From: a virus
Direction: 5' to 3' (one strand)
Virus record (IMG/VR): IMGVR_UViG_3300002307_000034
Span: 32,001 to 96,000 of that record
DNA: 64,000 nt
Shown here: positions 7,508-52,868 of the stretch, one piece after another
Position numbering within the stretch: the stretch's first letter is position 1
How the letters are laid out: each line of letters begins with the position of its first letter
The notes under the pieces: generated by a model
Database searches by the model: none
Told to the model about the DNA's origin: nothing
What the model saw: only the letters and a program-made list of their open reading frames with translations
Program-made: the position numbers and the translations under genes

Positions 7508-7638
7508 TGTCCTAATGCGTTTCCATCTTTTTTTACTATCCAGCGTTTACCGCAGGAAATGCAGTAGAGCTCCACTCGTGTTTTCTGAGAAAAGACACGA
7601 TCTATAAAAACTCTTCCATTGCATTTTTTACACCACAT
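7453..7638 (-). CDS. small zinc-ribbon protein
   Basis: CKKC...CISCG pairs. Confidence 0.65.
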   Translation of the reverse strand: MWCKKCNGRVFIDRVFSQKTRVELYCISCGKRWIVKKDGNALGQWLEKIEKDLNKEFCISI

Positions 7639-7663
7639 ATTAAGTTTTGTCTTCTAAGTAATA

Positions 7664-7969
7664 TTACTTAGTTGCCTTTAACTTTTTTGTGACTGCATCT
7701 GTTGCTTGTTCAGCAACAATACCGAATGCTGGATCATTCTTGTTAACATAACGCAAGATTACTGGAACTAATGAACCCCAGAGTGCGTTTGCTACAAGTG
7801 CGATCTGTGCACCCTTAAAATCAACAATCGAAATATGGCTTGTTTGCGAAACGATTGTTGCAGCTGCAATAACTTGACCTAACAAGTTACGAACATATGA
7901 TTGAATTAACGCTTGGTTAATTTTCATTATTTTATTGTCTCCTTTAGACGCTAAATAATTTCCCATCAA
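7664..7969 (-). CDS. small membrane protein, possible holin
   Basis: two hydrophobic segments and a basic C-terminus; real start probably MKINQ (~7927) after GGAG. Confidence 0.5.
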   Translation of the reverse strand: MMGNYLASKGDNKIMKINQALIQSYVRNLLGQVIAAATIVSQTSHISIVDFKGAQIALVANALWGSLVPVILRYVNKNDPAFGIVAEQATDAVTKKLKATK

Positions 7970-8747
7970 CTACACAAGTGTAGTTGGGAGAAATTTCCAC
8001 AATCTGTACATGAGGATGTTCACCATTCTCAATGTGTGCGATTGCGAAACCTTTTTGCCAATTATGATTTTGTGTATATTTCATACCATCACTTTTTTCA
8101 TCACACATGTGTCCAATTTCATATCCACGAATTGTTCTACCGTTTGTTGCAAGTGGAAGTTCGTATGTTTGAAAATGTGAGGCAATTCTGTGTGAGTGTC
8201 CTCTAATTAAAGAAATTTGTAAATCATCAATGTCTTTTCTTACTGCACCTGTATCTGCAATTGAAAGCCCATGATGAACATGTATATCTCCAAAACGTTG
8301 CTTTGGCAATTCATTATAATAAATATATTCATATCCTAATGAATCTAAAGACCAAAGTGATTCTGGTGTGATGTCTGCCAAATATTCTGGCATTTTTTTA
8401 TCAAGATAATCAAACACCCTAATATCATGATTTCCTAGTGCTGAAAACAATTGTGCATTTGGAAGCATATCTCTTGTCTTAGCATAAAAATCTCTTGCAC
8501 CTTTTGCTTCATGTCTCATCATAGGAACAATAAGGTCTTTACTATCATTTTTGTGAAGCTGAAGAAATTCTGCTGATCTTCCCTCTGTATACTTGCTATA
8601 GCAAGCTTGATCATCTGTATCTCCAAGATAATCAACAACTTCTGGCTTAAACCATTTCATGACTTTAAACCATAATTCTATAGCTTTGTCATCTTGATAT
8701 GGAAATTGCTGATCAGACGATAACATCCATTTAAGATCGTTTGTCAT
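7944..8747 (-). CDS. calcineurin-like metallophosphoesterase
   Basis: SDQQFP, LGD, GNHD, HHG, GHSH motifs. Confidence 0.85.
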   Translation of the reverse strand: MTNDLKWMLSSDQQFPYQDDKAIELWFKVMKWFKPEVVDYLGDTDDQACYSKYTEGRSAEFLQLHKNDSKDLIVPMMRHEAKGARDFYAKTRDMLPNAQLFSALGNHDIRVFDYLDKKMPEYLADITPESLWSLDSLGYEYIYYNELPKQRFGDIHVHHGLSIADTGAVRKDIDDLQISLIRGHSHRIASHFQTYELPLATNGRTIRGYEIGHMCDEKSDGMKYTQNHNWQKGFAIAHIENGEHPHVQIVEISPNYTCVVDGKLFSV

Positions 8748-36404: not shown

Positions 36405-36734
36405 CTACTCTCTACCCCATTTAATCTTGTTCCAAGCACGTTCGTGTGCGTAATAAAGAACGATCTTAATTACAAGTTCAATACCAGAAGCAACAAACGC
36501 TAACTTACCATTATGGGTTAACTCATAAATAATAATAAAAGAGATTAAGTTACCAAAGAATCTCCAACTAATGGCTTTTAATAAAGAACGACCATGTGAT
36601 ACCCACATAATTGGTTTACGAGGGGTTTGATCAGAATAAAGTCTATCTTCTGCATCAGCAATTCCTTGTCCAAGATTTGCCAATATATTAAATACCCATT
36701 TGCTTGCGTTTTTCAGTTGCTGAAATAGCTTCAA
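36405..36734 (-). CDS. DUF2061-like membrane protein
   Basis: RSLLKAISWR...YYAHERAWNKIKWG. Confidence 0.8.
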   Translation of the reverse strand: MKLFQQLKNASKWVFNILANLGQGIADAEDRLYSDQTPRKPIMWVSHGRSLLKAISWRFFGNLISFIIIYELTHNGKLAFVASGIELVIKIVLYYAHERAWNKIKWGRE

Positions 36735-37446
36735 TGTCTGCTCCTAACGATACTTGTTCAATTTTATATCCTACATCCCGCCCATATACAATATTTGTAA
36801 TATTTGGCATTTTAACTATCATTGCATTTTTCATAAATTCATCTTGAGCAATATAACCTTTAACTTGATCAAATGTTAGTGGATCTTTAGGACTTGTATT
36901 GTATGTATTTCTAACACCAAGCATTACTTGACTTGTTCGCTTACCTGCTTCTTCATATAAGGCATGATGACCTTCATGCCAAGGTTGGTAACGTCCAAGC
37001 ATTAAAGTTGTTGGTTCTGACCAATCGTGTAAATTAAATTTTTGAATAATATATGTTGCCTTTTGATATTCATCCATCTCATGTGAATTAAACATGACAT
37101 CAAAAAATTCTGGTTTTTCAAATATTCTATTTGTATTTTCAAAACGCCCTTCAGATATAGTGTTCATCCAAATAATTATATCTGCTTTACCAAAAGCTTT
37201 TCTAGTCTCTTCGGTTGGGCATACAAAATCAGCAATAACAATTTGATTTTGATTATGAAGCAATCTTGATAAAGCACCCATTCTGCGACCTTGCTCTATT
37301 CTATCTTCTACAGTAAAACCCAAATCTTTATTTAAATCAGATCTAACTTCGTCTGCATTTAAAAGTGTTCCGTTTACTCTGTCTGCAAGGACGGTAGCAA
37401 TAGTTGTCTTTCCACTACCTGGCAAACCTATAATTTGTATAATCAT
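36688..37446 (-). CDS. cysC: adenylyl-sulfate kinase fused to HxGH nucleotidyltransferase domain
   Basis: GLPGSGKTT, NADEVR..L.KDLGFT.EDR.EQ, ADFVCP; C-terminal LGRYQPWHEGH. Confidence 0.85.
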   Translation of the reverse strand: MIIQIIGLPGSGKTTIATVLADRVNGTLLNADEVRSDLNKDLGFTVEDRIEQGRRMGALSRLLHNQNQIVIADFVCPTEETRKAFGKADIIIWMNTISEGRFENTNRIFEKPEFFDVMFNSHEMDEYQKATYIIQKFNLHDWSEPTTLMLGRYQPWHEGHHALYEEAGKRTSQVMLGVRNTYNTSPKDPLTFDQVKGYIAQDEFMKNAMIVKMPNITNIVYGRDVGYKIEQVSLGADIEAISATEKRKQMGI

Positions 37447-37449
37447 TTA

Positions 37450-38127
37450 TTATCCATTCCAAAACAACTCTTTATTATTATATATTTCTAAATCTTTTTG
37501 ATTTAAACTTTCAATAAATTTTATTTCTTTTTTACTTAACATTTTATACAATATTTTAGATGAATCATTTATGTTATGATCATTTAATATGTATTGACTT
37601 TTATTATACACCTTTTTTAATGATAAGTCTTTGTGTATTTTATATTTAAGTTTTTCACATTTAACATTTGTTAAACTATCATTTCTTATTAAAATATTTA
37701 TTCTTTTTAACCTATCAATAAGTAATTTATCATTGATTTTTATTGTATTAAATTCTGGAGTATCTTTTATATCTAAAGTTGGGCCGAGTGGGGCGGAGTC
37801 GTATAAAAAACTTTTTGATTGAAAATTAGATATATATGTATTATTTTTTTCTAACCATTTCATCATGTTTAAAACATTAATTTCTAAATTATTATTAAAA
37901 TGTTTATGATTCCAAGCATAGTGACTTACAGTTCTTTCAATTGGATTTCTGATACTGGATATTACATATGTTTTATCATCAACCTTTGACCAATAAGCGT
38001 GTTGATCTTGTTTTATTTTTATTTTAGCATCTTTTAATCCAGGTGTTAAATAATCTATAATTTCAGATCTAATGAAATGACCAGCTGTTTTAGGTATATG
38101 TAAAAAATAAAAACTTTCATAAATCAT
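37450..38127 (-). CDS. sulfotransferase family protein
   Basis: FLHIPKTAG 5'-PSB loop, RNPIERTVS 3'-PB. Confidence 0.8.
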   Translation of the reverse strand: MIYESFYFLHIPKTAGHFIRSEIIDYLTPGLKDAKIKIKQDQHAYWSKVDDKTYVISSIRNPIERTVSHYAWNHKHFNNNLEINVLNMMKWLEKNNTYISNFQSKSFLYDSAPLGPTLDIKDTPEFNTIKINDKLLIDRLKRINILIRNDSLTNVKCEKLKYKIHKDLSLKKVYNKSQYILNDHNINDSSKILYKMLSKKEIKFIESLNQKDLEIYNNKELFWNG

Positions 38128-38812
38128 TTAAATCAATTACCATTTTTTCTTGTTCCTGCCATCCTATGTAATCTTTATTCCAATTTAAACTTGCAGTTAA
38201 ATGAATAAATGCATCATTATAATATGATGCTTTATTATTTCCTAAATATTTTATACTATCTACTGAATATATTTTTATATCATTTTTTTTATTATTATCT
38301 AAATAATTATTAATTCCTTTAGTCCAGGCCATCACTCCAGTAATTCTATCAACAAATCTTATATCTTTATAATTTGGTTCTTTAAAATTATCTTCTACGC
38401 AATCAATAACACTTTTAAGAAGTTTATGTTTTGGCTTTGATGCAAATGATATTTGATTATAAAAATAATCGTCATCGTCTTTCGAAATAATTAAATTATA
38501 GCCAGGTACGACCCACTCTTCAATTTTTTTATTACAAATTGTATCTATATCTACATAAACACCTCCATACGTATAAACAATTAAATACCTCCAAATATCA
38601 CTTTTCATAACTCCAACTGGACAACTATCAAATATGTTTAACCATTTTTTACCAAATTCACGAAAAATAAAAAATCTTATTTGTTCATCATCCATATAAA
38701 TATAATTATATTCTGGATTTAAATATTGCCAAGTTTGAGTTTTTTCTTTAATATACGTTGGCAATTTTTCAAAAGGATCTTTATAAGTTTGCCATATTAT
38801 TTTAGGAATCAT
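38117..38812 (-). CDS. glycosyltransferase, GT32/OCH1-like (DxD)
   Basis: IPKIIWQT, KSDIWRY..YGGVYVDID. Confidence 0.88.
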   Translation of the reverse strand: MIPKIIWQTYKDPFEKLPTYIKEKTQTWQYLNPEYNYIYMDDEQIRFFIFREFGKKWLNIFDSCPVGVMKSDIWRYLIVYTYGGVYVDIDTICNKKIEEWVVPGYNLIISKDDDDYFYNQISFASKPKHKLLKSVIDCVEDNFKEPNYKDIRFVDRITGVMAWTKGINNYLDNNKKNDIKIYSVDSIKYLGNNKASYYNDAFIHLTASLNWNKDYIGWQEQEKMVIDLNDL

Positions 38813-39462
38813 ATAGATTTTTCTAAAATTTCATAATCGTCTTTAAAATGATTTTCTATTAAAGATTGCGTGTATTTGCTTAAAATAATGCCTTCGTCTT
38901 TAAAAGTTTTCATTGTTATAGGAAGTTTTATATTTTTATCAAAACCAATTTTTTCTAAAATTATAGGCCATGTTTTTTGAATATTTTTAATATTATACAA
39001 ATCTATTGTTTTATCATAATTAAGTCTTTTTATTTGTGGATTTACTGGTTCTATATTCATAAATAAAATATCTTGTATAAAACCGTCTAGCCCTTTATTT
39101 ATTAGATGAGAATATGATTCTTTTTCTATATCATTTGCTGATTTTTTTGTATAATAATAAAAAGAAATCATTAATTCTTTTGGATCACGAATTGTAGAAA
39201 ATTTATAAAAGTTATTCCACTTTTCATTACCAATTAATTTTTTTATTTTTTCTGCTGATGAATGTTTAGATAATCCTTTTTCTTGAATATTTTTCCAACC
39301 AAAATATTTAGCGTATAAATTTTCTAATTCCATGCCGAAAGACAAGCCTCCAAAAATATAATCATCCCATTCTAAATATGGAGTTAAGGCTTCTTCTATA
39401 GAAGTTCCTCCAGTTTTATGTAAATGTATATATATAAATTTTTTAGAATTACTAATTATCAT
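38809..39462 (-). CDS. sulfotransferase family 2 protein
   Basis: FIYIHLHKTGGTS, RDPKELMISFY, FKDDYE. Confidence 0.85.
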   Translation of the reverse strand: MIISNSKKFIYIHLHKTGGTSIEEALTPYLEWDDYIFGGLSFGMELENLYAKYFGWKNIQEKGLSKHSSAEKIKKLIGNEKWNNFYKFSTIRDPKELMISFYYYTKKSANDIEKESYSHLINKGLDGFIQDILFMNIEPVNPQIKRLNYDKTIDLYNIKNIQKTWPIILEKIGFDKNIKLPITMKTFKDEGIILSKYTQSLIENHFKDDYEILEKSI

Positions 39463-39961
39463 TTTTTTCCTTAATTTTTAAAAGCAAATAATCTGCATTT
39501 GCTTTTATATGTTTAAATTTACCCTGTTCAAATTCAAAATCTTTTCTTTTTTTCATAAATGGACAAAATATTCTTGCTTGTTTCATACATTCAATATGAA
39601 AAGGCATTATATCTGAAAACACTCTGGGACCTTTTTCATCATTTATTAATCCATCTTTATAACATCTTCCGTCTTCTGTTTTTTCTGAATTCCAACTTAT
39701 GCAAATTTCTTCTGGTAAAAAAGATAAACCACAATAACCGCAAATATTATCTGGTTTTACCTTTTTTTCATTTTTTGTTATAACATTAAACATAGCATTA
39801 TTTTTTAATATAGGTTTTGATTGCCATGGAATTGGAATATTTTTATTTATAAAATAATCTGCTTCTTTTCTAAATTTTTCTGGAACATGAACCATAGGTC
39901 TTGGTAAACCTAAAATTTCATCTTGTTCATCCCAATTTGAAAAATCTTTAATTATTTTCAT
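39452..39961 (-). CDS. hypothetical Cys/His-containing protein
   Basis: CGYCG and FHIEC..A..FCPF motifs. Confidence 0.6.
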   Translation of the reverse strand: MKIIKDFSNWDEQDEILGLPRPMVHVPEKFRKEADYFINKNIPIPWQSKPILKNNAMFNVITKNEKKVKPDNICGYCGLSFLPEEICISWNSEKTEDGRCYKDGLINDEKGPRVFSDIMPFHIECMKQARIFCPFMKKRKDFEFEQGKFKHIKANADYLLLKIKEKNDN

Positions 39962-40659
39962 TAGTCAAATTTAGGTTTTTTCCAAATATTATCACGATAC
40001 CATCCCCAAGATGAAAATCCACTTTTTTTATGATTTAAAAATGCTTCTTCTAAAACATTTTTATCGTAAACAGATTCCCAATTTTCTGTTTTAAATGGAA
40101 TAATTTGAGCAATTGGAGTGCCTGCAGGAATTAATCCTTCAAAAGTTTTACTAAAAAATACTGGAACATTTCCACTTGGAACGGAAAAATTACCATCAAT
40201 AAAACCACTTAGTGTAATAAAAGGTAGATCAAATCTATTTAACGGATGTGTTACAAGTGCAGAATATCCTTTTGGAATATTAAAACAATGTTTTGTGTTC
40301 CATGCAAAATGAAGTTTTGAAAATCCTTCTGGCACTGGAAGTAAAATATTATGGTTATCATCTCTTAATGCAAGAAAATTTACATCCGGATCTCTCCATG
40401 TAATTACAGGACCACCTTCGGTTTGCTCAACCATAATATCAACTGGAAGTGGCAACATGTATCCACTAGTTAGTGAACTTAAAAATGGAGCACAAGCTTT
40501 AAATGTAACTTCCGCTGGAAGCCTTTTAGGAAATTCCCCATTTTTAAATTTTGGCGTGTCCATATACCACCTTGGAATATTATTTTTTGCTGGAGATATG
40601 TTTGGAAAAACATTGTCCTCAGCTGCATGCCTAAAAATATTTTTTTTATTTTTTATCAT
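39961..40659 (-). CDS. conserved phage protein (DUF6065-like), paralogue 1
   Basis: PA...IP.WY, K.C.PF...LT.GY, P.GYS.L..HP.N, IPAGTP.AQ.IP.K.E.W. Confidence 0.65.
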   Translation of the reverse strand: MIKNKKNIFRHAAEDNVFPNISPAKNNIPRWYMDTPKFKNGEFPKRLPAEVTFKACAPFLSSLTSGYMLPLPVDIMVEQTEGGPVITWRDPDVNFLALRDDNHNILLPVPEGFSKLHFAWNTKHCFNIPKGYSALVTHPLNRFDLPFITLSGFIDGNFSVPSGNVPVFFSKTFEGLIPAGTPIAQIIPFKTENWESVYDKNVLEEAFLNHKKSGFSSWGWYRDNIWKKPKFD

Positions 40660-41342
40660 TTATACTCTTTTCTATGCCAAAACAATTGTTTATATCTGTT
40701 ATAAAATTTACTTGTTAATAATCTTTCTGTCTTTTCATAATCATATTTATCATTAATAATTTGATGAGACCAAGATTCTCTTTTAATTGGAATTACTTGA
40801 GCCATTGGTGTACCTGCTGGGATAATCCCCTCAAAGTTTACATCATTTAAAACAAATGGAAAATTAACTGGAGAGTTATAAGTATCTGTGTCAACAATTG
40901 CTTCTAAAATAGTAAAATATTTATTATTACCATGTACTGGTGGAATTATTAATACAGAATATCCTGGAGGAGTTTTAATTCCCCATGGATTTATCCATTT
41001 AGGATATGGATGCTGATTCATATTTGGGTGATAGGGAGCTTGCTCTATACCATGATGTTGAATATTTTCTATTTGACTAGTTAAATATAAAATTTCACCA
41101 TTATCATTTTTTTTGATATATAAATCACAATATGTTGAAATTATATATCCTGCTGTTAAAACATCAAATACTGGTTGACATTTTTTTATAGTACTATTTA
41201 CTGTACCTTGATATCCTATATCCCTTTTTCCACCCACATAAGATTGAGTTTTTTTATACCATTCTGGAATATTTTCTGAAGCTGGAATAGGGCGATAAAT
41301 ACCATCAACACTATTTGTGTTGATAAATTTTATATTATTCAT
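40656..41342 (-). CDS. conserved phage protein (DUF6065-like), paralogue 2
   Basis: same motif series as 39961..40659. Confidence 0.65.
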   Translation of the reverse strand: MNNIKFINTNSVDGIYRPIPASENIPEWYKKTQSYVGGKRDIGYQGTVNSTIKKCQPVFDVLTAGYIISTYCDLYIKKNDNGEILYLTSQIENIQHHGIEQAPYHPNMNQHPYPKWINPWGIKTPPGYSVLIIPPVHGNNKYFTILEAIVDTDTYNSPVNFPFVLNDVNFEGIIPAGTPMAQVIPIKRESWSHQIINDKYDYEKTERLLTSKFYNRYKQLFWHRKEYK

Positions 41343-42950: not shown

Positions 42951-45900
42951 TTAATATGCCTGCATAATATGCATAATTTTTGTTTCATTTGCAAGCTTTG
43001 CAAATGTTATTGAACCATCTGCTACTGAAGATGAAGGGGTTGCCCATTGAACTCCCGTCCCAGTTGATTGCAAGAATTGACCTGAAGTTCCTGCAGAACC
43101 ACCTGCAGTTACAGTTCCTGTCATTGTTTGGTTATTTAATGTTAGTCCCGCAATTGTAGTTACAGTTGCACCTGATGAAATTGAAGTTGATCCAAGTGTT
43201 GGTGCTGTGTATCCTGAAGGAGGATTTACCCATTGAACACCTGTTCCAGTTGATGAAAGTAGTTGTCCTGAAGTTCCTGCAGAGCTATTTGCAGTTAATG
43301 TACCACTTAATGTTGCTCCAGATAATGTGAGTCCTGCAATTGTAGTTACAGTTGCTCCAGATGCAATTGATGTTGAACCAATAGTTGGAGCAGAATATCC
43401 TGATACTGAAGCCCATGAAAGGGTTCCCGCTCCATCAGTTGTAAGGTATTTACCAGAATTAGATGTTTGAGATGGAAGTAAGTTAGCAGCAGCTGTTGAA
43501 GCTGTTGTAGCACCTGTACCACCATTTGCAATTGCAATTGCTGTACCATTCCAAACACCTGTTGCAATTGTTCCAACTGATGTAAGTGATGAACCTACTA
43601 CTGAAGAGTTAAGTGTTGTACCTGTTAATGTTTCCGCTGCTGCGGTAATAGTTTTTGTATCTCCAAGTGATATTGAAGTTCCATTAATTGTAATACTTGA
43701 ATTTGCAAGGCTTGTATTACCAATATTAGATAAAGTATTTGTAGAACCTGAAATTGATTTATTTGTCAATGTATCTGTAGTTGCTCTGCCTACTAATGTA
43801 TCTGTAGATGTAGGAAGTGTTAATGTTCCTGTATTAGTAATTTGAGCAATTACTGGTGTTGTTAATGTCAATCCCGCCAAAGTTGAGGCAGTCCCTCCAA
43901 GTGATACAGAAGTTGAGCCAATTGTTACTGAGTTGTTTGCTAGCTGAGAATTTGAAACTCCAGCAGATTTAATTGCTACGTTGCCAGATGTTACTGTAAA
44001 TGATGCTGAGTCAAAAGATGCAATACCTTTATTAGAAGTACTTGCAACATTTTGAGCACCTGTCTGATAACCAGTAACACGACCATATGAATCTACAGTA
44101 ATTCCAGATACGATGCCGTTTGCAAGATTCCCGCCCGTTGTATTTGACTGAGAAACTGTAGCAAGATCAACGCTATCTGCAGTAACATTAAGTGTTGATG
44201 AAACAACATCTACTGTGTTGCCGGTTCTAAGAAGACCGTTACCTGCTACGAATGATGAAGCACCTGAGAACTGAGTCCATGTAATATTATCTGTGCCAAT
44301 AAGTACTAGGCCATCTGTTCCTGAACCTGTCATTGTAGCAACAAATGATTGATTTAAATTATTTGGACCATAAAGTACATATACTGCATCTCCTGCAGAA
44401 ACTTCATCAATTGTGTGGTTGTCTGAATCTGTTGCACGAGTAAGAACCCATTTTGTTGAAGAAGACCCCTTGTCTGTTACAACATAAATACCATTTTGCT
44501 TTGCATCTGCTTGATTTTTAATAAGTACACGGTTGCCATTATTTACATTTATAGTATCAATTGCAAGTGCTGCATTTGCTGTAGCAGTTAATGTTGCTCC
44601 AATTCCTAAACCGCCATTAGCATCAGTTGTTCCGTCTGCATATGTAGATGAAGGTAAAACTCCAGATGTTGCAGCCACGACTGCTGCATGCCAGTTCATT
44701 CCTGCAGAAATATTATCTACATAAGCTTTTGAAGCGGCATGCCCTGCAGATGTAGGAGTTGTATTTACTGTAATTAAATTAGCTGTAAAATTACCTGATG
44801 CATCACGAGCAACAATTGTTGAAGCTGTATTTGCATCTGTAGCGGTGGTTGCAGAATTTGCAACTTTGCCACTAGTTGTAATAGTTGCAAGTTTTGTATC
44901 TGCTATTCCAGCTGAAGGTGATATATCTGCATTTACAATTGTTCCGTCTACTATGTCTGCGGAAGTAATAGAAGAAGAAAGATTTAATTTGCTATATGCT
45001 ATTTCTGCTGAATCATTAATATCAGCATTTACAATTGTGTTATCTAGAATCATAGTAGAAGTAACAGAACCTGTATCTGTTGTTTTTACTACATTAGCGG
45101 TTGCATTAGATATTGCAGTGTTTCTGTTAGAAACTTCTGTTGCTATAACTGAATCAGCATATCCTTCAGATGTTGATATTGCTTGAGACTTAGCGGTTGC
45201 TATTGCAGAATTACGGTTAGTAACTTCTGTGCTAATTGCTGAATCTGTGTAAGATTCTGAAGCGGTAATTGCTTCTGATTTTTTAGTATCAGCATATGAT
45301 TTTGTAGCAAGTGCTGCGGTATCTGAAATACCATGAACATTTGTTGTTGCTGATGTATGTGATGATAGAGTAGAGCTTGATGCTTTTGCATCTAATTGTG
45401 TTTGAATAGAAGATGTTACTCCATCAAGATATCCAATTTCTGTATTAGATACATTTGTAACTCTTGTTTGAACAACATCTGTATTTATAGAAAAAGATGA
45501 GCCAGATAGGTTTAAACCATTTCCAGCAATATATGTACCGCTACCCGCTGATTGTTGAAAATTAATATTATCTGTACCAATTACAATTCCATATGCAGGA
45601 AATTCTGATGATCCCAAAGAATCCATAAACCAAGTTGTTTTTGAAAGAGTATTTCCTTCTCCAACATAAATTGTGCGACCACCGATTAATTGTCCTTGAA
45701 AAGAATTATCATAATCTGAAGTGCGTGTTGCAACCCATGGGTTATTTAAATCTCCAGATGTTGTAATGTAATATATGCCATTTTGCTTTGCATCTGCTTG
45801 ATCTTTGATTAAAATTCTATCTAATAAATCAACTTCTACGCCATCAACAGTTAACGTACCATTTGAACTGCCTGTTAAAGTTCCGCCAATACCTTTGCCA

Positions 45901-46547
45901 TATTCGCCTGAATCACCATCATTATTTATTGCATCAATTGGTTCTGTAGTAGCAAAATTAACAAATACTGAATGATAAACATTTTCAATAATTTGATCTA
46001 CATAGCCTTTATTTGTTGCATCTGTATCTATATCTGGATCAGATAAATTTAATATTTTTTTGCTATTTGCATCTAAATTTTCGCTTAAGCTTGTTGATGA
46101 TCCTAGTGTTTTATTAGTTAGTGTCTGAGTTCCATTTGTAGAAACAACATTACCAGCACCATTTGTGCCAATATTAAGATTTTCTATTGATGTGTCTGTG
46201 TAACCTTCTGCAGTTGTAATTGCATTGCTAATATCTGTATTAGTAGAAGATTGAAATCCTGAAAGATCTGCAGCATCTGCTGCTGTATAGCCAAGTGCTG
46301 TATTTACATCTGTATCCGTAAGGGTAACTTCACCTTGACGGGAATTAAAAGATGTAACAGCTACGGAAGATATCCCTGAAGGAAGTACTGAAGCATAATC
46401 TAATGTACGCCAAATATTAGTACCATTACCAATTTTAAATTTGCCTGTATCGGTTTCAAATCCTATTTCGCCAGAAGATAGCTGGGGGTTTACATCGTAC
46501 CAATTACTGGCTGTGTCTCTTCTTATTTGAATTCTTGTACTTGACAT
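42951..46547 (-). CDS. long tail fibre with major-tropism-determinant-like N-terminal domain
   Basis: RIQIRRDTASNW..NPQLSSGEIGFETDTGKFKIGNG; duplicated QADAKQNGIY domain; C-terminal ~62-aa repeats. Confidence 0.85.
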   Translation of the reverse strand: MSSTRIQIRRDTASNWYDVNPQLSSGEIGFETDTGKFKIGNGTNIWRTLDYASVLPSGISSVAVTSFNSRQGEVTLTDTDVNTALGYTAADAADLSGFQSSTNTDISNAITTAEGYTDTSIENLNIGTNGAGNVVSTNGTQTLTNKTLGSSTSLSENLDANSKKILNLSDPDIDTDATNKGYVDQIIENVYHSVFVNFATTEPIDAINNDGDSGEYGKGIGGTLTGSSNGTLTVDGVEVDLLDRILIKDQADAKQNGIYYITTSGDLNNPWVATRTSDYDNSFQGQLIGGRTIYVGEGNTLSKTTWFMDSLGSSEFPAYGIVIGTDNINFQQSAGSGTYIAGNGLNLSGSSFSINTDVVQTRVTNVSNTEIGYLDGVTSSIQTQLDAKASSSTLSSHTSATTNVHGISDTAALATKSYADTKKSEAITASESYTDSAISTEVTNRNSAIATAKSQAISTSEGYADSVIATEVSNRNTAISNATANVVKTTDTGSVTSTMILDNTIVNADINDSAEIAYSKLNLSSSITSADIVDGTIVNADISPSAGIADTKLATITTSGKVANSATTATDANTASTIVARDASGNFTANLITVNTTPTSAGHAASKAYVDNISAGMNWHAAVVAATSGVLPSSTYADGTTDANGGLGIGATLTATANAALAIDTINVNNGNRVLIKNQADAKQNGIYVVTDKGSSSTKWVLTRATDSDNHTIDEVSAGDAVYVLYGPNNLNQSFVATMTGSGTDGLVLIGTDNITWTQFSGASSFVAGNGLLRTGNTVDVVSSTLNVTADSVDLATVSQSNTTGGNLANGIVSGITVDSYGRVTGYQTGAQNVASTSNKGIASFDSASFTVTSGNVAIKSAGVSNSQLANNSVTIGSTSVSLGGTASTLAGLTLTTPVIAQITNTGTLTLPTSTDTLVGRATTDTLTNKSISGSTNTLSNIGNTSLANSSITINGTSISLGDTKTITAAAETLTGTTLNSSVVGSSLTSVGTIATGVWNGTAIAIANGGTGATTASTAAANLLPSQTSNSGKYLTTDGAGTLSWASVSGYSAPTIGSTSIASGATVTTIAGLTLSGATLSGTLTANSSAGTSGQLLSSTGTGVQWVNPPSGYTAPTLGSTSISSGATVTTIAGLTLNNQTMTGTVTAGGSAGTSGQFLQSTGTGVQWATPSSSVADGSITFAKLANETKIMHIMQAY

Positions 46548-46876: not shown

Positions 46877-48802
46877 TTAGCCTATTACAACTACGTTGTA
46901 AGTTTCTCCAGTTACTGGAGCGGATGCAAATGATACTGTAATTATGTTTGTTGATGTACGCTTTACATCAATTTCAATATCATTGTATTGATCTACTCCT
47001 GCAGATGTTTGATATACACGAACCATTACATCTCTTGATCCAAGAGCATGTGTGAATGAAAATGTATCATCTACGCTGTTTCCAGTAATGGAACTTGAAT
47101 ATTTGCGAGTAACTGTTGTGTAATCTGCATTTTTTGCAAAATCATCAGATACAAGTTGAGATTCAAGTGTTGATAAACTAAGGTCAAGCGTTGCGCCTGA
47201 AGGATTTGTAATATATGTTGATCCTGATACTACATCAGAAGCTTTAAAACTAATTGAAGCATTTGAAATAGTAATTCCAGTTCCCGCTGTATATTCGCCA
47301 GCAGCTGAGAATTGTGTCCAAGTGTAACCTGTACCTGTAGCAATATATCCAGTCTTGCCTTGAGTTCCATATTCAATAAATACAAAGTCACCAACTGCTG
47401 GAGTTGTATGATCTGTTGCACGAGAAAGTGAACCGTCGTTTGCGGTTACATAAATGCCATTTTCAGATGAGGTAGTTTGATTCTTAACAAGAATACGATC
47501 CCCAGAATTCCAAGCATTGAACCCATCAAGACTGTCAGTGTCAGCATTCCATGTTCCAAGGTTAATATTTATGGTTGAAGCAGCAGTTACTGACTCTTTA
47601 ACATTAAGACCTTGTGCAATACTATGAATATCAGAAATTGTTGCAATTTCATTGCCTGTTGCTGCAGAGCCAAGATATGCTGTACCATCTGCATTAAGAA
47701 CAATGTCTCCACCATTTTGTGATGTAATTGTTACATCATCATGTGCCAAAATGCGAAGGCTAGCAGTATGTGCAGTAATTTCAAAATCATTATTTGTAGG
47801 ATTGATAACAATTTCGCCTTCATTTGCAACAGTTATTTCATCTGTAAAGTATAATGGACCTTGAATTGTTTTGTTTGAAAGTGTTTGTATATCTGAAGTT
47901 CCTACTACATAACCAGTTACACCATGTACACCAGATGATAATCCTGCGTGTGTTGAAAGATCTGTAGCAACATAGCCCGCTTCTGTTGCTGCTGTGCCAG
48001 CTGCGTCATACCAAGTGTCTACTGTAGTTCTATCTACAGTTATTGCACCAGTAGACGAATCATAAGAAATTCCTGAAGAACCACTTATTGCATTACGTGC
48101 ACGAGAATCTGTAAAATAAACATTAACTGGTGATACACCTTCTGAAATATCATCAGTATAAAGTGTTAAACTTGACCCTAGGCTTACATCACTACCATTA
48201 ATAGTTACTTTTGAATTTGTAAGTGAAGTATTATCAATATTTGAAATAGTATTATCTGATCCAGATATTGTTTTATTAGTAAGAGTTTGTGTTCCAGTTT
48301 CTGTAACATAACCTGTAAGATCACCTGTTATATCACCAAATGTTGCAAGTCTATTGTCTGAAGTTACTGAACCCTTATAAACATCTCCATCTGCTGAAAG
48401 AATAATATCTCCGCTGGATGTTGTAAGAGTTATATTATTGTTAGCACTTAATGCTATTCCAGTAGTGGAACCAAGTTCTGTATTACCGTTACCATCAACA
48501 TCAAGTCCATGATCTGTTGACCCGCCAACATACAATGCACCACCTAGTGTTACATTTTCTGCGAGTGTTAATTGTTGATCTGTTACTACAAAATTACCAT
48601 CAACTGATCCAATATATTGAACACCTACTGGAGACCAGTGCGTTGTTCCTGTTCCTGTTGAATAGTAGAATGTACTATCTCCTGTGTTAAAGTATAGTTG
48701 TCCTGCTGCAAGGGCTGATGGGGCCGAGGGAGCAGAATGGATAACTGCATTAAGTAGCTGATTACCCTTTAAATTAATATTTGTTAAAAATGTTTTTGCC
48801 AT
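46877..48802 (-). CDS. tail fibre protein
   Basis: FLTNINLKGNQL start, TQTLTNKT repeats, DRILVKNQT..ENGIY, THALGSRDVMV. Confidence 0.8.
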   Translation of the reverse strand: MAKTFLTNINLKGNQLLNAVIHSAPSAPSALAAGQLYFNTGDSTFYYSTGTGTTHWSPVGVQYIGSVDGNFVVTDQQLTLAENVTLGGALYVGGSTDHGLDVDGNGNTELGSTTGIALSANNNITLTTSSGDIILSADGDVYKGSVTSDNRLATFGDITGDLTGYVTETGTQTLTNKTISGSDNTISNIDNTSLTNSKVTINGSDVSLGSSLTLYTDDISEGVSPVNVYFTDSRARNAISGSSGISYDSSTGAITVDRTTVDTWYDAAGTAATEAGYVATDLSTHAGLSSGVHGVTGYVVGTSDIQTLSNKTIQGPLYFTDEITVANEGEIVINPTNNDFEITAHTASLRILAHDDVTITSQNGGDIVLNADGTAYLGSAATGNEIATISDIHSIAQGLNVKESVTAASTININLGTWNADTDSLDGFNAWNSGDRILVKNQTTSSENGIYVTANDGSLSRATDHTTPAVGDFVFIEYGTQGKTGYIATGTGYTWTQFSAAGEYTAGTGITISNASISFKASDVVSGSTYITNPSGATLDLSLSTLESQLVSDDFAKNADYTTVTRKYSSSITGNSVDDTFSFTHALGSRDVMVRVYQTSAGVDQYNDIEIDVKRTSTNIITVSFASAPVTGETYNVVVIG

Positions 48803-51866: not shown

Positions 51867-52868
51867 TTAAACTAAAGAGTTGTAAATTTTTTGTAATCTT
51901 GCTACTGCAGGTTTTGTAACTGTTAACCAATCATATTCATTATGTAAATCAAAAGCTTTTTTAAATGTATCTTTTAATATATTATCATAAGTTTCTACTG
52001 CATTTAACATTTGTTTCTTTAAACTTTTTTTATCTGGCTTCATCATCATGCCTGGATGTGTTTGCTGCCATGGACTGAATTGATAAACACTATCTACTGG
52101 AAAATTAATATATTCTGCATAATCAGCCCATCCTGCTGTTGAAATTGTTGGCATTCCAGTTGCTGCAGCTTGCATTGGTTGTAATCCCCAACCTTCACCC
52201 CAACTTGGATAAATAAAAACATCACATAATTCATAAAGGCCAACCATCTGCTCTTCACTTAATAAAGCATCAATAGAAATTATATTGTCATATGAAGCTG
52301 CGGGAGATGTTAAATATCCATATTGAGGATCTGGAACTTTAACAGTATTCATGCCATTAGATTTTAATACAAGTCTATATTTTGGATCATTTCCAAATAA
52401 TTCTATAAAACAATCAGTTGTAAGTTGTCCTTCTTTTCTTGAAAAAGGTTCACCCATATGTAAAAATGTAAATTGATCATGTGCAGTTTTTCTTAACTTA
52501 GGTTTCCAAATTTTATTAATTCCATGTTTATAAGTAAATATTGGTTTACCTGGAAATATTTTTCTATAAACTTCTTCCACCCAAGGAGAAGTTGCCCAAA
52601 GTTCATCTGCAACAGAAATTTTCTTTTTCATTTCAGGAAGCATGTCAGTTGATTCCCAAGCTATATAAGCAATTTTATAAGCATTTTTATTTGTGAATTG
52701 GATGTTTCTAGGATCTGCAAAACATATTTCAATATCAGAATCTAATGCGTCTATTTCAACATCTATACCTAATTCTTCAAATGATTTATATATATTATAA
52801 GATGCTTGCCCATATCCCACAGATAAGTCCATATGACGCATAGCTAAGCCTGAAAATCCTATTTTCAC
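51867..52868 (-). CDS. glycosyltransferase family 4
   Basis: RKEG, FIYPSWGEGWGLQPMQAAATG.P. Confidence 0.88.
   Translation of the reverse strand: MKIGFSGLAMRHMDLSVGYGQASYNIYKSFEELGIDVEIDALDSDIEICFADPRNIQFTNKNAYKIAYIAWESTDMLPEMKKKISVADELWATSPWVEEVYRKIFPGKPIFTYKHGINKIWKPKLRKTAHDQFTFLHMGEPFSRKEGQLTTDCFIELFGNDPKYRLVLKSNGMNTVKVPDPQYGYLTSPAASYDNIISIDALLSEEQMVGLYELCDVFIYPSWGEGWGLQPMQAAATGMPTISTAGWADYAEYINFPVDSVYQFSPWQQTHPGMMMKPDKKSLKKQMLNAVETYDNILKDTFKKAFDLHNEYDWLTVTKPAVARLQKIYNSLV

Follow-up and report, generated by a model that had tools for sequence, protein, structure and literature searches.

Organization of the locus

The window analysed in this study (64,000 nucleotides in length) comprises bases 32001-96000 of a single viral contig of 104,950 bp from a lake-type phage (IMG/VR record IMGVR_UViG_3300002307_000034), which has a GC content of 33.6% and is 97% complete according to CheckV. 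Positions 36405-39462 of the window hold five tightly packed open reading frames (ORFs) on the minus strand, transcribed in the order sulfotransferase A, GT32-type glycosyltransferase, sulfotransferase B, a fusion protein of 252 aa and a DUF2061 membrane protein (Table 1). Adjacent ORFs overlap by 4-47 nt or are separated by a single 3-nt gap. The GT32 gene overlaps sulfotransferase A by 4 nt and sulfotransferase B by 11 nt, the gap lies between sulfotransferase B and the fusion, and the fusion overlaps the DUF2061 gene by 47 nt. This five-gene island had been described earlier from the sequence alone; all the ORFs are as placed there and their families are supported by profile matches.

The fusion protein joins a shortened domain resembling APS kinase (APS, adenosine 5'-phosphosulfate) to a small HxGH nucleotidyltransferase (NT) domain. 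From comparative genomics we propose, with a probability of about 0.55, that it is a minimal bifunctional PAPS (3'-phosphoadenosine 5'-phosphosulfate) synthase, the sulfurylase half of which is a mini-NT derived from NadM and which supplies the two sulfotransferases of the island. A self-contained PAPS synthase was also the proposal of the sequence-only reading, which suggested that the C-terminal domain may be a stripped-down ATP sulfurylase (Sat). Comparative genomics favours the synthase, but descent from Sat is unsupported.

Table 1. Positions of the genes and domains of the island in the window
Feature	Position (strand)	Length	Assignment
Sulfotransferase A	38809..39462 (-)	217 aa	Sulfotransfer_2 / Gal-3-O-sulfotransferase-like; PF03567, phrog_3347
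GT32-type glycosyltransferase	38117..38812 (-)	231 aa	PF04488, PF05704, DxD
Sulfotransferase B	37450..38127 (-)	225 aa	Divergent; phrog_3347 and motifs
Fusion protein	36688-37446 (-)	252 aa	
Fusion, N-terminal domain	37027..37446 (-)	~residues 1-140	Shortened APS-kinase-like P-loop kinase; PF01583
Fusion, C-terminal domain	36688..37026 (-)	~residues 141-252	Minimal HxGH nucleotidyltransferase, candidate sulfate adenylyltransferase
DUF2061 small membrane protein	36405..36734 (-)	109 aa	PF09834
Probable cassette extension	39452..41342 (-)		Cys-rich orf169 and two DUF6065-like/phrog_7084 paralogues

The N-terminal domain resembles APS kinase

Residues 2-84 of the fusion match PF01583 (APS_kinase) with 65.9 bits against a cut-off of 21.1, but the alignment spans only positions 4-91 of the 152 in the profile. 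With TIGR00455 the score is 62.8, short of the cut-off (138.7), while PHROG 10255 ('kinase') covers the whole fusion with 232 bits. The lid region is shortened relative to the APS kinase profile. The P-loop GLPGSGKTT occupies residues 7-15, and its G7, G12 and K13 are at least 90% conserved in the family. In the counterpart of the DGDN loop (LNADEVR, residues 29-35) Asn takes the place of the first Asp, while the second Asp and the Arg remain. It is followed by an APS-binding-type block, LNKDLGFTVEDR (residues 38-49), in which LNKDLGFxxEDR is kept, and the stretch RFENTNRIFEKPE lies further along the kinase domain at residues 101-113. Conservation across the fusion family is also at least 90% for D32, R35, F44 and R49, residues of the types that form the DGDN loop and contact APS in APS kinases.

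The model of the kinase domain has a pLDDT of 95.9, and every top Foldseek match to it in the PDB is an APS kinase (E 3.5e-9 to 3e-7, TM score by target 0.6-0.75), as are all the top PDB matches by sequence. The retained kinase and APS-binding residues strongly suggest that the N-terminal domain would phosphorylate the 3'-OH of APS, yielding PAPS.

The C-terminal domain is a minimal nucleotidyltransferase

The C-terminal domain carries the motif GRYQPWHEGH at residues 151-160 (HEGH at 157-160), followed by R179, P189, PNI (214-216), YGRDVGY (221-227) and ISATEKR (241-247). The CTP_transf_like profile matches residues 149-187 with 20 bits, just below its cut-off of 21. Across 133 representatives (50%-identity level), the mini-NT signature is GR[YFW]QP[FW]HxGH, R179, [ND]P189, PNI, YGRDVGY and IS[AG]TxxR, in which HxGH, R152, Q154, R179, G222-R223, G226, S242 and R247 are invariant or nearly so. 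Such conservation of the NT motifs argues that the domain is catalytic.

A profile built from stand-alone members of the family matches the archaeal NadM-type nicotinamide mononucleotide (NMN) adenylyltransferase (NMNAT) MJ0541 (1f9a, E 3.5e-14). GR[FYW]QP[FW]HxGH and SxTxxR are common to the C-terminal domain and NadM-type enzymes (MJ0541; Francisella NadM, 2qjt), whereas the C-terminal domain lacks ~25 residues from the interior of NadM and ~30 from its end. Residues 76-109 of MJ0541 are swapped for nine residues that hold the invariant YGRDVG; in NMNAT structures the internal segment so lost carries the nicotinamide-binding residues. The conserved R179 and GRD, in turn, are absent from NadM, and the partner of the C-terminal domain is an APS-kinase-like protein. 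The dedicated NMNAT models of NCBIfam score far below their cut-offs (NF002243, 24.4 against 127; TIGR01527, 17.7 against 181).

Modelled alone, the domain has a pLDDT of 95.4 and aligns to residues 1-135 of the 164 in the NMNAT chain. Phosphopantetheine adenylyltransferase (PPAT) and NMNAT head the Foldseek matches, with PPAT at rank 1. VIA-align gives Z scores of 9.2 for NMNAT, 9.2 for PPAT, 9.1 for NadM and 8.1 for the Thermus ATP sulfurylase (1v47), the core of which can be superposed over 109 of the 113 residues (2.9 A; for NMNAT, 104 residues at 3.0 A). Structure prediction, which had been suggested from the sequence as a check, recovers the HxGH core, but the fold does not discriminate between Sat, NMNAT and PPAT (Z 8.1 versus 9.2). 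The C-terminal domain thus amounts to the shared HxGH core with nothing added, and its structure does not single out the acceptor.

Sat (PF01747; Thermus 1v47, yeast 1j70) is likewise a member of the HxxH nucleotidyltransferase superfamily and has HxxH, GRD and ISxTxxR in the same order; Pelagibacteraceae Sat reads HRAH, VGRDHAG and ISGTKIR where the C-terminal domain reads HEGH, YGRDVGY and ISATEKR. However, the motifs are spaced by 65 and 19 residues in the C-terminal domain and by 88 and 61 in Pelagibacteraceae Sat. Only the GRD of GRDHAG is common to both, and HxxH and SxTxxR occur throughout the superfamily. Unlike Sat, the C-terminal domain has no N-terminal PUA-like domain, is about one third of the size and shows no significant sequence similarity.

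Distribution and domain arrangements of the family

The whole fusion protein yields 6,978 matches, and close homologues are annotated in their sources as 'adenylylsulfate kinase'. The C-terminal domain alone matches 907 clusters (50%-identity level) at E <= 1e-3 and also occurs as a stand-alone protein of ~110-125 aa. Kinase and mini-NT are found together in three independent arrangements. Fusions of ~250-290 aa occur in phages and soil Alphaproteobacteria; adjacent or overlapping split genes of ~135 aa each occur in complete Pelagibacter chromosomes and in SAR86; and the reverse order, with the NT ahead of a full-length canonical APS kinase, is seen in P0126 and P0259 (212 and 202 bits on PF01583) and at OCS116 loci. 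That the two recur in three independent arrangements speaks strongly for joint action of their activities.

In one metagenomic protein (P0139, 395 aa) a DUF4118 membrane domain is fused ahead of the kinase-NT unit. This fusion and the phage DUF2061 partner together hint at a role for membrane association. In two other metagenomic proteins, P0195 and P0212, the mini-NT seems to be joined to parts of chorismate synthase and of the C-terminal domain of 3-dehydroquinate synthase; these may be artefacts of gene calling or assembly, or real shikimate-pathway neighbours.

The fusion and sulfotransferases in phage genomes

Neighbourhoods in phages were taken from 80 related IMG/VR loci. A DUF2061 gene lies directly 3' of the fusion on the same strand in 76 of them, and a sulfotransferase lies within 6 kb of the fusion in at least 24; the variable neighbours include 2-oxoglutarate-dependent (2OG) oxygenases and several glycosyltransferase families. 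BLAST searches and iterated HMMs started from the sulfotransferases of the window recovered few neighbouring sulfotransferases because these enzymes are too divergent, and the other genomes were searched with Pfam and PHROG models instead. Among the eight fusion-bearing phage genomes that are at least 90% complete, a sulfotransferase is recognizable in seven, and none has Sat, CysD or CysH (the PAPS_reduct family). The present genome has two sulfotransferases, but no Sat and no gene of the PAPS_reduct family (CysD/CysH).

Viral CysC has been listed as an auxiliary metabolic gene (AMG) in lake and marine viromes and read, without validation, as serving assimilatory sulfate reduction (10.1101/655167; PMC12713726). 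Judging from the annotation of close homologues, these 'cysC' AMGs are probably the same genes as the kinase-NT fusion. The assimilatory reading does not fit the present genomes, and sulfation does, because the near-complete fusion phages lack Sat, CysD and CysH and seven of the eight have sulfotransferases. We found no published description of the fusion in the literature on DUF2061, on phage APS kinases with sulfotransferases or on viral cysC.

The locus of Xylella phage Sano (L001:5957-7726) differs in its details. The fusion is preceded there by a NADAR-domain protein and by a 195-aa protein that weakly matches Sulfotransfer_4 (E 4e-4), and the gene that follows the fusion is not DUF2061 by Pfam.

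Cellular carriers of the pair

Among 50 cellular carriers, Sat is present in one, CysD in about 20 and neither in about 29; the carriers without Sat and CysD lack CysH-type reductases as well. We therefore rejected a role of the pair as the missing part of an assimilatory sulfate reduction pathway. Complete Pelagibacter genomes (G001, G004) as well as OCS116 (G006, G009) and SAR86 (G028, G046) genomes have the pair together with strong Sulfotransfer_1 or Sulfotransfer_3 genes (E down to 1e-45) and no Sat, CysD or CysH. In the two OCS116 genomes the sulfotransferases lie a few kb from the pair on the same contig.

We then consider SAR11 as a group, sampled by 201 SAR11-family genomes that are at least 80% complete (including the unpublished G223, positive for both mini-NT and sulfotransferase). 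Of these, 135 have the mini-NT and 105 have a sulfotransferase. The mini-NT occurs in 90 of the 105 genomes with a sulfotransferase and in 45 of the 96 without (cross-table 90/45/15/51), which corresponds to an odds ratio of 6.8 (Fisher p 5e-9), uncorrected for phylogeny, genome size and completeness.

The split pair of Pelagibacter (L143-L145, L150 and L151, at ~7579-8360 in each) is near-core in SAR11 (135/201). It has a Rieske oxygenase and an S-adenosylmethionine (SAM) methyltransferase on one side and enoyl-CoA hydratase, CoA-binding, flavodoxin-like and DMGDH-like genes on the other, with no obvious link to sulfation. In Inquilinus limosus (L112:8418-9833) an ASST-type arylsulfotransferase (PF14269, E 8e-27) is encoded directly downstream of the fused kinase-NT gene; the ASST-type family is regarded as PAPS-independent. 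A link between DUF2061 and the pair in cells was rejected, as DUF2061 follows the pair only in five contigs of metagenome-assembled genomes (MAGs) that resemble phage DNA.

Proposed function and alternatives

In the scheme that we propose, the C-terminal domain, as a bare HxGH catalytic core of NadM-like descent, would move AMP from ATP onto sulfate, giving APS; the shortened kinase domain would then phosphorylate the 3'-OH of APS, and the resulting PAPS would feed the two adjacent sulfotransferases, which with the GT32 enzyme may build a sulfated glycan. Fusion of the two domains would help to draw the unfavourable sulfurylase equilibrium forward. Such a pull by domain fusion is established for PAPS synthases generally. 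DUF2061, a conserved membrane partner in phages, might serve in membrane anchoring or anion supply, which is speculation.

Known bifunctional PAPS synthases (PAPSS1/2, 1x6v; Sat-CysC enzymes such as that of Aquifex, 2gks; CysNC) likewise have an APS kinase covalently joined to a domain of the adenylyltransferase superfamily, and the product and the two-step coupling logic proposed for the fusion are the same as theirs. Animal PAPSS also shares the kinase-then-transferase order, although the reverse order occurs in the mini-NT family too. However, PAPS synthases are ~550-630 aa in length (PAPSS1/2, ~620 aa) against 252 aa for the fusion, in which the transferase half is ~110 aa, has no PUA-like domain and by sequence is not detectably part of the Sat family, and in which the kinase lid is shortened.

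Several observations weigh against a PAPS synthase. In sequence and fold the C-terminal domain is nearest to NMNAT and PPAT and not to Sat: the fusion does not match PF01747 at E <= 0.1, the mini-NT family profile matches no ATP sulfurylase chain even at E <= 10, and hhalign against a real Sat gives a probability of 5% over 19 columns, covering the ISxTxxR motif only. A distant relative, P0125, reaches 18.8 bits on PF01747, where the cut-off is 24.3. Both the sequence profile and the fold thus make the ~110-aa domain a trimmed NadM-type NMN adenylyltransferase by descent and not a trimmed Sat; the 'stripped-down Sat' of the sequence-only reading is wrong as descent, though it may be right as function. 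The genomic context is also uneven. Co-occurrence of the fusion with sulfotransferases across phages, which had been suggested as a check, holds in seven of the eight near-complete genomes, but the complete phage G061 has the fusion and no detectable sulfotransferase. In Sano and in Stenotrophomonas phage DLP_6 the surrounding genes are early genes and genes of nucleotide metabolism, and any sulfotransferase-like neighbour is weak. About 20 of the 50 cellular carriers have CysD as well, so the pair is not just a substitute. The association in SAR11 is uncorrected, as stated, and leaves 45 genomes with the mini-NT and no detected sulfotransferase and 15 in the opposite state. None of these 15 carries Sat, so that Sat as their substitute was rejected; they are about as many as expected from completeness of 80-100%, yet the distribution is not cleanly complementary. 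Finally, the Pelagibacter pair lies amid Rieske oxygenase, methyltransferase, enoyl-CoA hydratase, CoA-binding protein and GCV_T enzymes, and soil neighbourhoods are heterogeneous (ASST-type arylsulfotransferase, Xsc-like thiamine pyrophosphate (TPP) enzyme, RTX/HlyD genes). Neither is a signature of PAPS-dependent sulfation.

The main rival is a different acceptor, since synthesis of CoA by PPAT and dephospho-CoA kinase also proceeds by adenylylation followed by 3'-phosphorylation. The NT would then adenylylate another small anion or metabolite, the kinase would 3'-phosphorylate the adenylate, and the product would not be PAPS. The tie of PPAT with NMNAT as best structural neighbour (and its first rank in Foldseek), the CoA-related and demethylation genes around the Pelagibacter pair with no adjacent sulfotransferase, the heterogeneous Sano, DLP_6 and soil loci and the 45 SAR11 genomes just mentioned all fit such an enzyme. 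We nevertheless consider it unlikely, because the kinase half retains the LNKDLGFxxEDR block specific to APS kinases and has matches to APS kinases only, the kinases in the reverse-order fusions are canonical in full, and the mini-NT co-occurs with sulfotransferases in phages and SAR11. Loss of the ~25 internal residues and of the C-terminal helices would also leave little room for a bulky acceptor. NAD salvage seems very improbable. A NadR-like enzyme combining NMN adenylyltransferase with a nucleoside or nucleotide kinase could, for instance, restore NAD+ during infection, and both the family profile's similarity to NadM and the weak NCBIfam matches to NMNAT, as well as the NADAR-domain gene immediately upstream of the fusion in Sano, point that way. 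But the NMNAT models stay far below their cut-offs (24.4 against 127), the segments replaced or absent relative to MJ0541 include the nicotinamide-binding one, the partner domain is APS-kinase-like and not a ribosylnicotinamide kinase, and the context at this locus is one of sulfotransferases and a glycosyltransferase.

It could also be that the protein is an APS kinase only, supplied with APS by the Sat or CysDN of the host, with the NT-like domain as a nucleotide-binding, regulatory or oligomerization module. Fungal ATP sulfurylase, which carries a non-catalytic, regulatory APS-kinase-like domain, is a precedent in reverse (1i2d and 1m8p are among the matches); moreover, WhiB points to an actinobacterial host (see below), and many actinobacteria possess CysDN. 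This too appears improbable, less so than NAD salvage and more so than another acceptor: the catalytic signature of the NT is invariant in the family, unlike that of degenerate regulatory domains, the mini-NT also stands alone, and complete Pelagibacter genomes have the pair with neither Sat nor CysD to supply APS.

The bifunctional PAPS synthase is accordingly the reading that we prefer. A wider form of it, on which we would place even odds, is that the ~110-aa domain represents a third, previously unrecognized class of ATP sulfurylase, a NadM-like NMNAT minus its acceptor-binding parts, and that no smaller PAPS synthase is known than the one it makes up with a trimmed APS kinase. As the pair occurs in about two thirds of the sampled SAR11 genomes and in very many aquatic phages, organisms considered incapable of sulfate activation would then produce PAPS, for sulfation and not for assimilation. 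If so, PAPS would have an additional, highly compact source, and a widespread viral auxiliary gene, 'cysC', would have to be reread as serving the sulfation of glycans or other acceptors and not sulfur assimilation. Streamlined bacteria such as SAR11 and SAR86 that have neither Sat nor CysDN could then supply their many sulfotransferases. A single-chain PAPS synthase of 252 aa would also be a useful reagent for enzymatic sulfation.

Sulfotransferases, GT32 and DUF2061 proteins of the island

Sulfotransferase A matches PF03567 with 26.2 bits (cut-off 22) and phrog_3347 over its full length (E 1.8e-9). Its sequence contains a motif like the 5'-phosphosulfate-binding (5'-PSB) loop, HLHKTGGTS (residues 13-21), and one like the 3'-phosphate-binding (3'-PB) motif, IRDPKELMISFYYY (residues 91-104). 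Sulfotransferase B has no Pfam match and is recognized by phrog_3347 only (E 3.5e-4; 3.7e-6 in the genome search), together with clear 5'-PSB and 3'-PB motifs read from its sequence, HIPKTAGHF (residues 10-18) and IRNPIERTVSHYAW (residues 59-72); its family membership is weaker than that of sulfotransferase A. The glycosyltransferase matches PF04488 (Gly_transf_sug) with 62.7 bits (cut-off 23) and PF05704 with 24.8 bits, and its DxD motif is the DID at residues 88-90 within YVDID (86-90). The DUF2061 protein matches the full PF09834 profile (positions 1-52; 57.1 bits against a cut-off of 23.1, E 2.5e-15), and its long N-terminal form is kept in the closest relatives.

Flanking genes and genome setting

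The next gene upstream of the island, the Cys-rich orf169 (169 aa), overlaps sulfotransferase A by 11 nt, and further upstream lie two paralogues of 228-232 aa that match phrog_7084 (E 1.1e-27 and 1.7e-56). The orf169 and phrog_7084 genes accompany GT32 in relatives L007-L010, and the Atlas neighbours of the genes at 39452-41342 are viral clusters with DUF6065 in 12-21% of their members. The unit probably extends upstream through orf169 and both DUF6065-like paralogues. GC content falls to 23.8% at 38001-40000 against 33.6% genome-wide; this would fit an acquired cassette and suggests that the sulfotransferase and glycosyltransferase part was acquired separately.

The island had also been placed between Ser/Thr-rich fibre genes. 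Ser/Thr-rich ORFs (27-30% Ser+Thr) do flank it: a 238-aa ORF (27% Ser+Thr) and a 945-aa ORF lie downstream, and ORFs of 180 aa and 105 aa lie upstream. However, orf169, the two DUF6065-like paralogues and orf174 stand between the island and the upstream ORFs, and a 1198-aa protein beyond the same four genes is the sole flanking protein that matches tail-fibre families.

Portal proteins of large Streptomyces siphoviruses share ~51% identity with that of the contig, and a gene of the WhiB family (PF02467, E 8.3e-12) lies outside the window at G000:C1:5664-5837. On these two similarities the host is likely to be an actinobacterium despite the low GC content, which would make the virus a probable actinophage. 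A megablast search with 15 kb of the window found no match among cultured phages.

Two minus-strand proteins, of 1198 aa (42951-46547) and 641 aa (46877-48802), have matches to phrog_2647, phrog_30390 and phrog_27782 in common. As these are 'head decoration' and fibre PHROGs, the two appear to be related repeat-rich surface proteins. A further glycosyltransferase gene (phrog_2170) at 51867-52868 adjoins ribonucleotide reductase.

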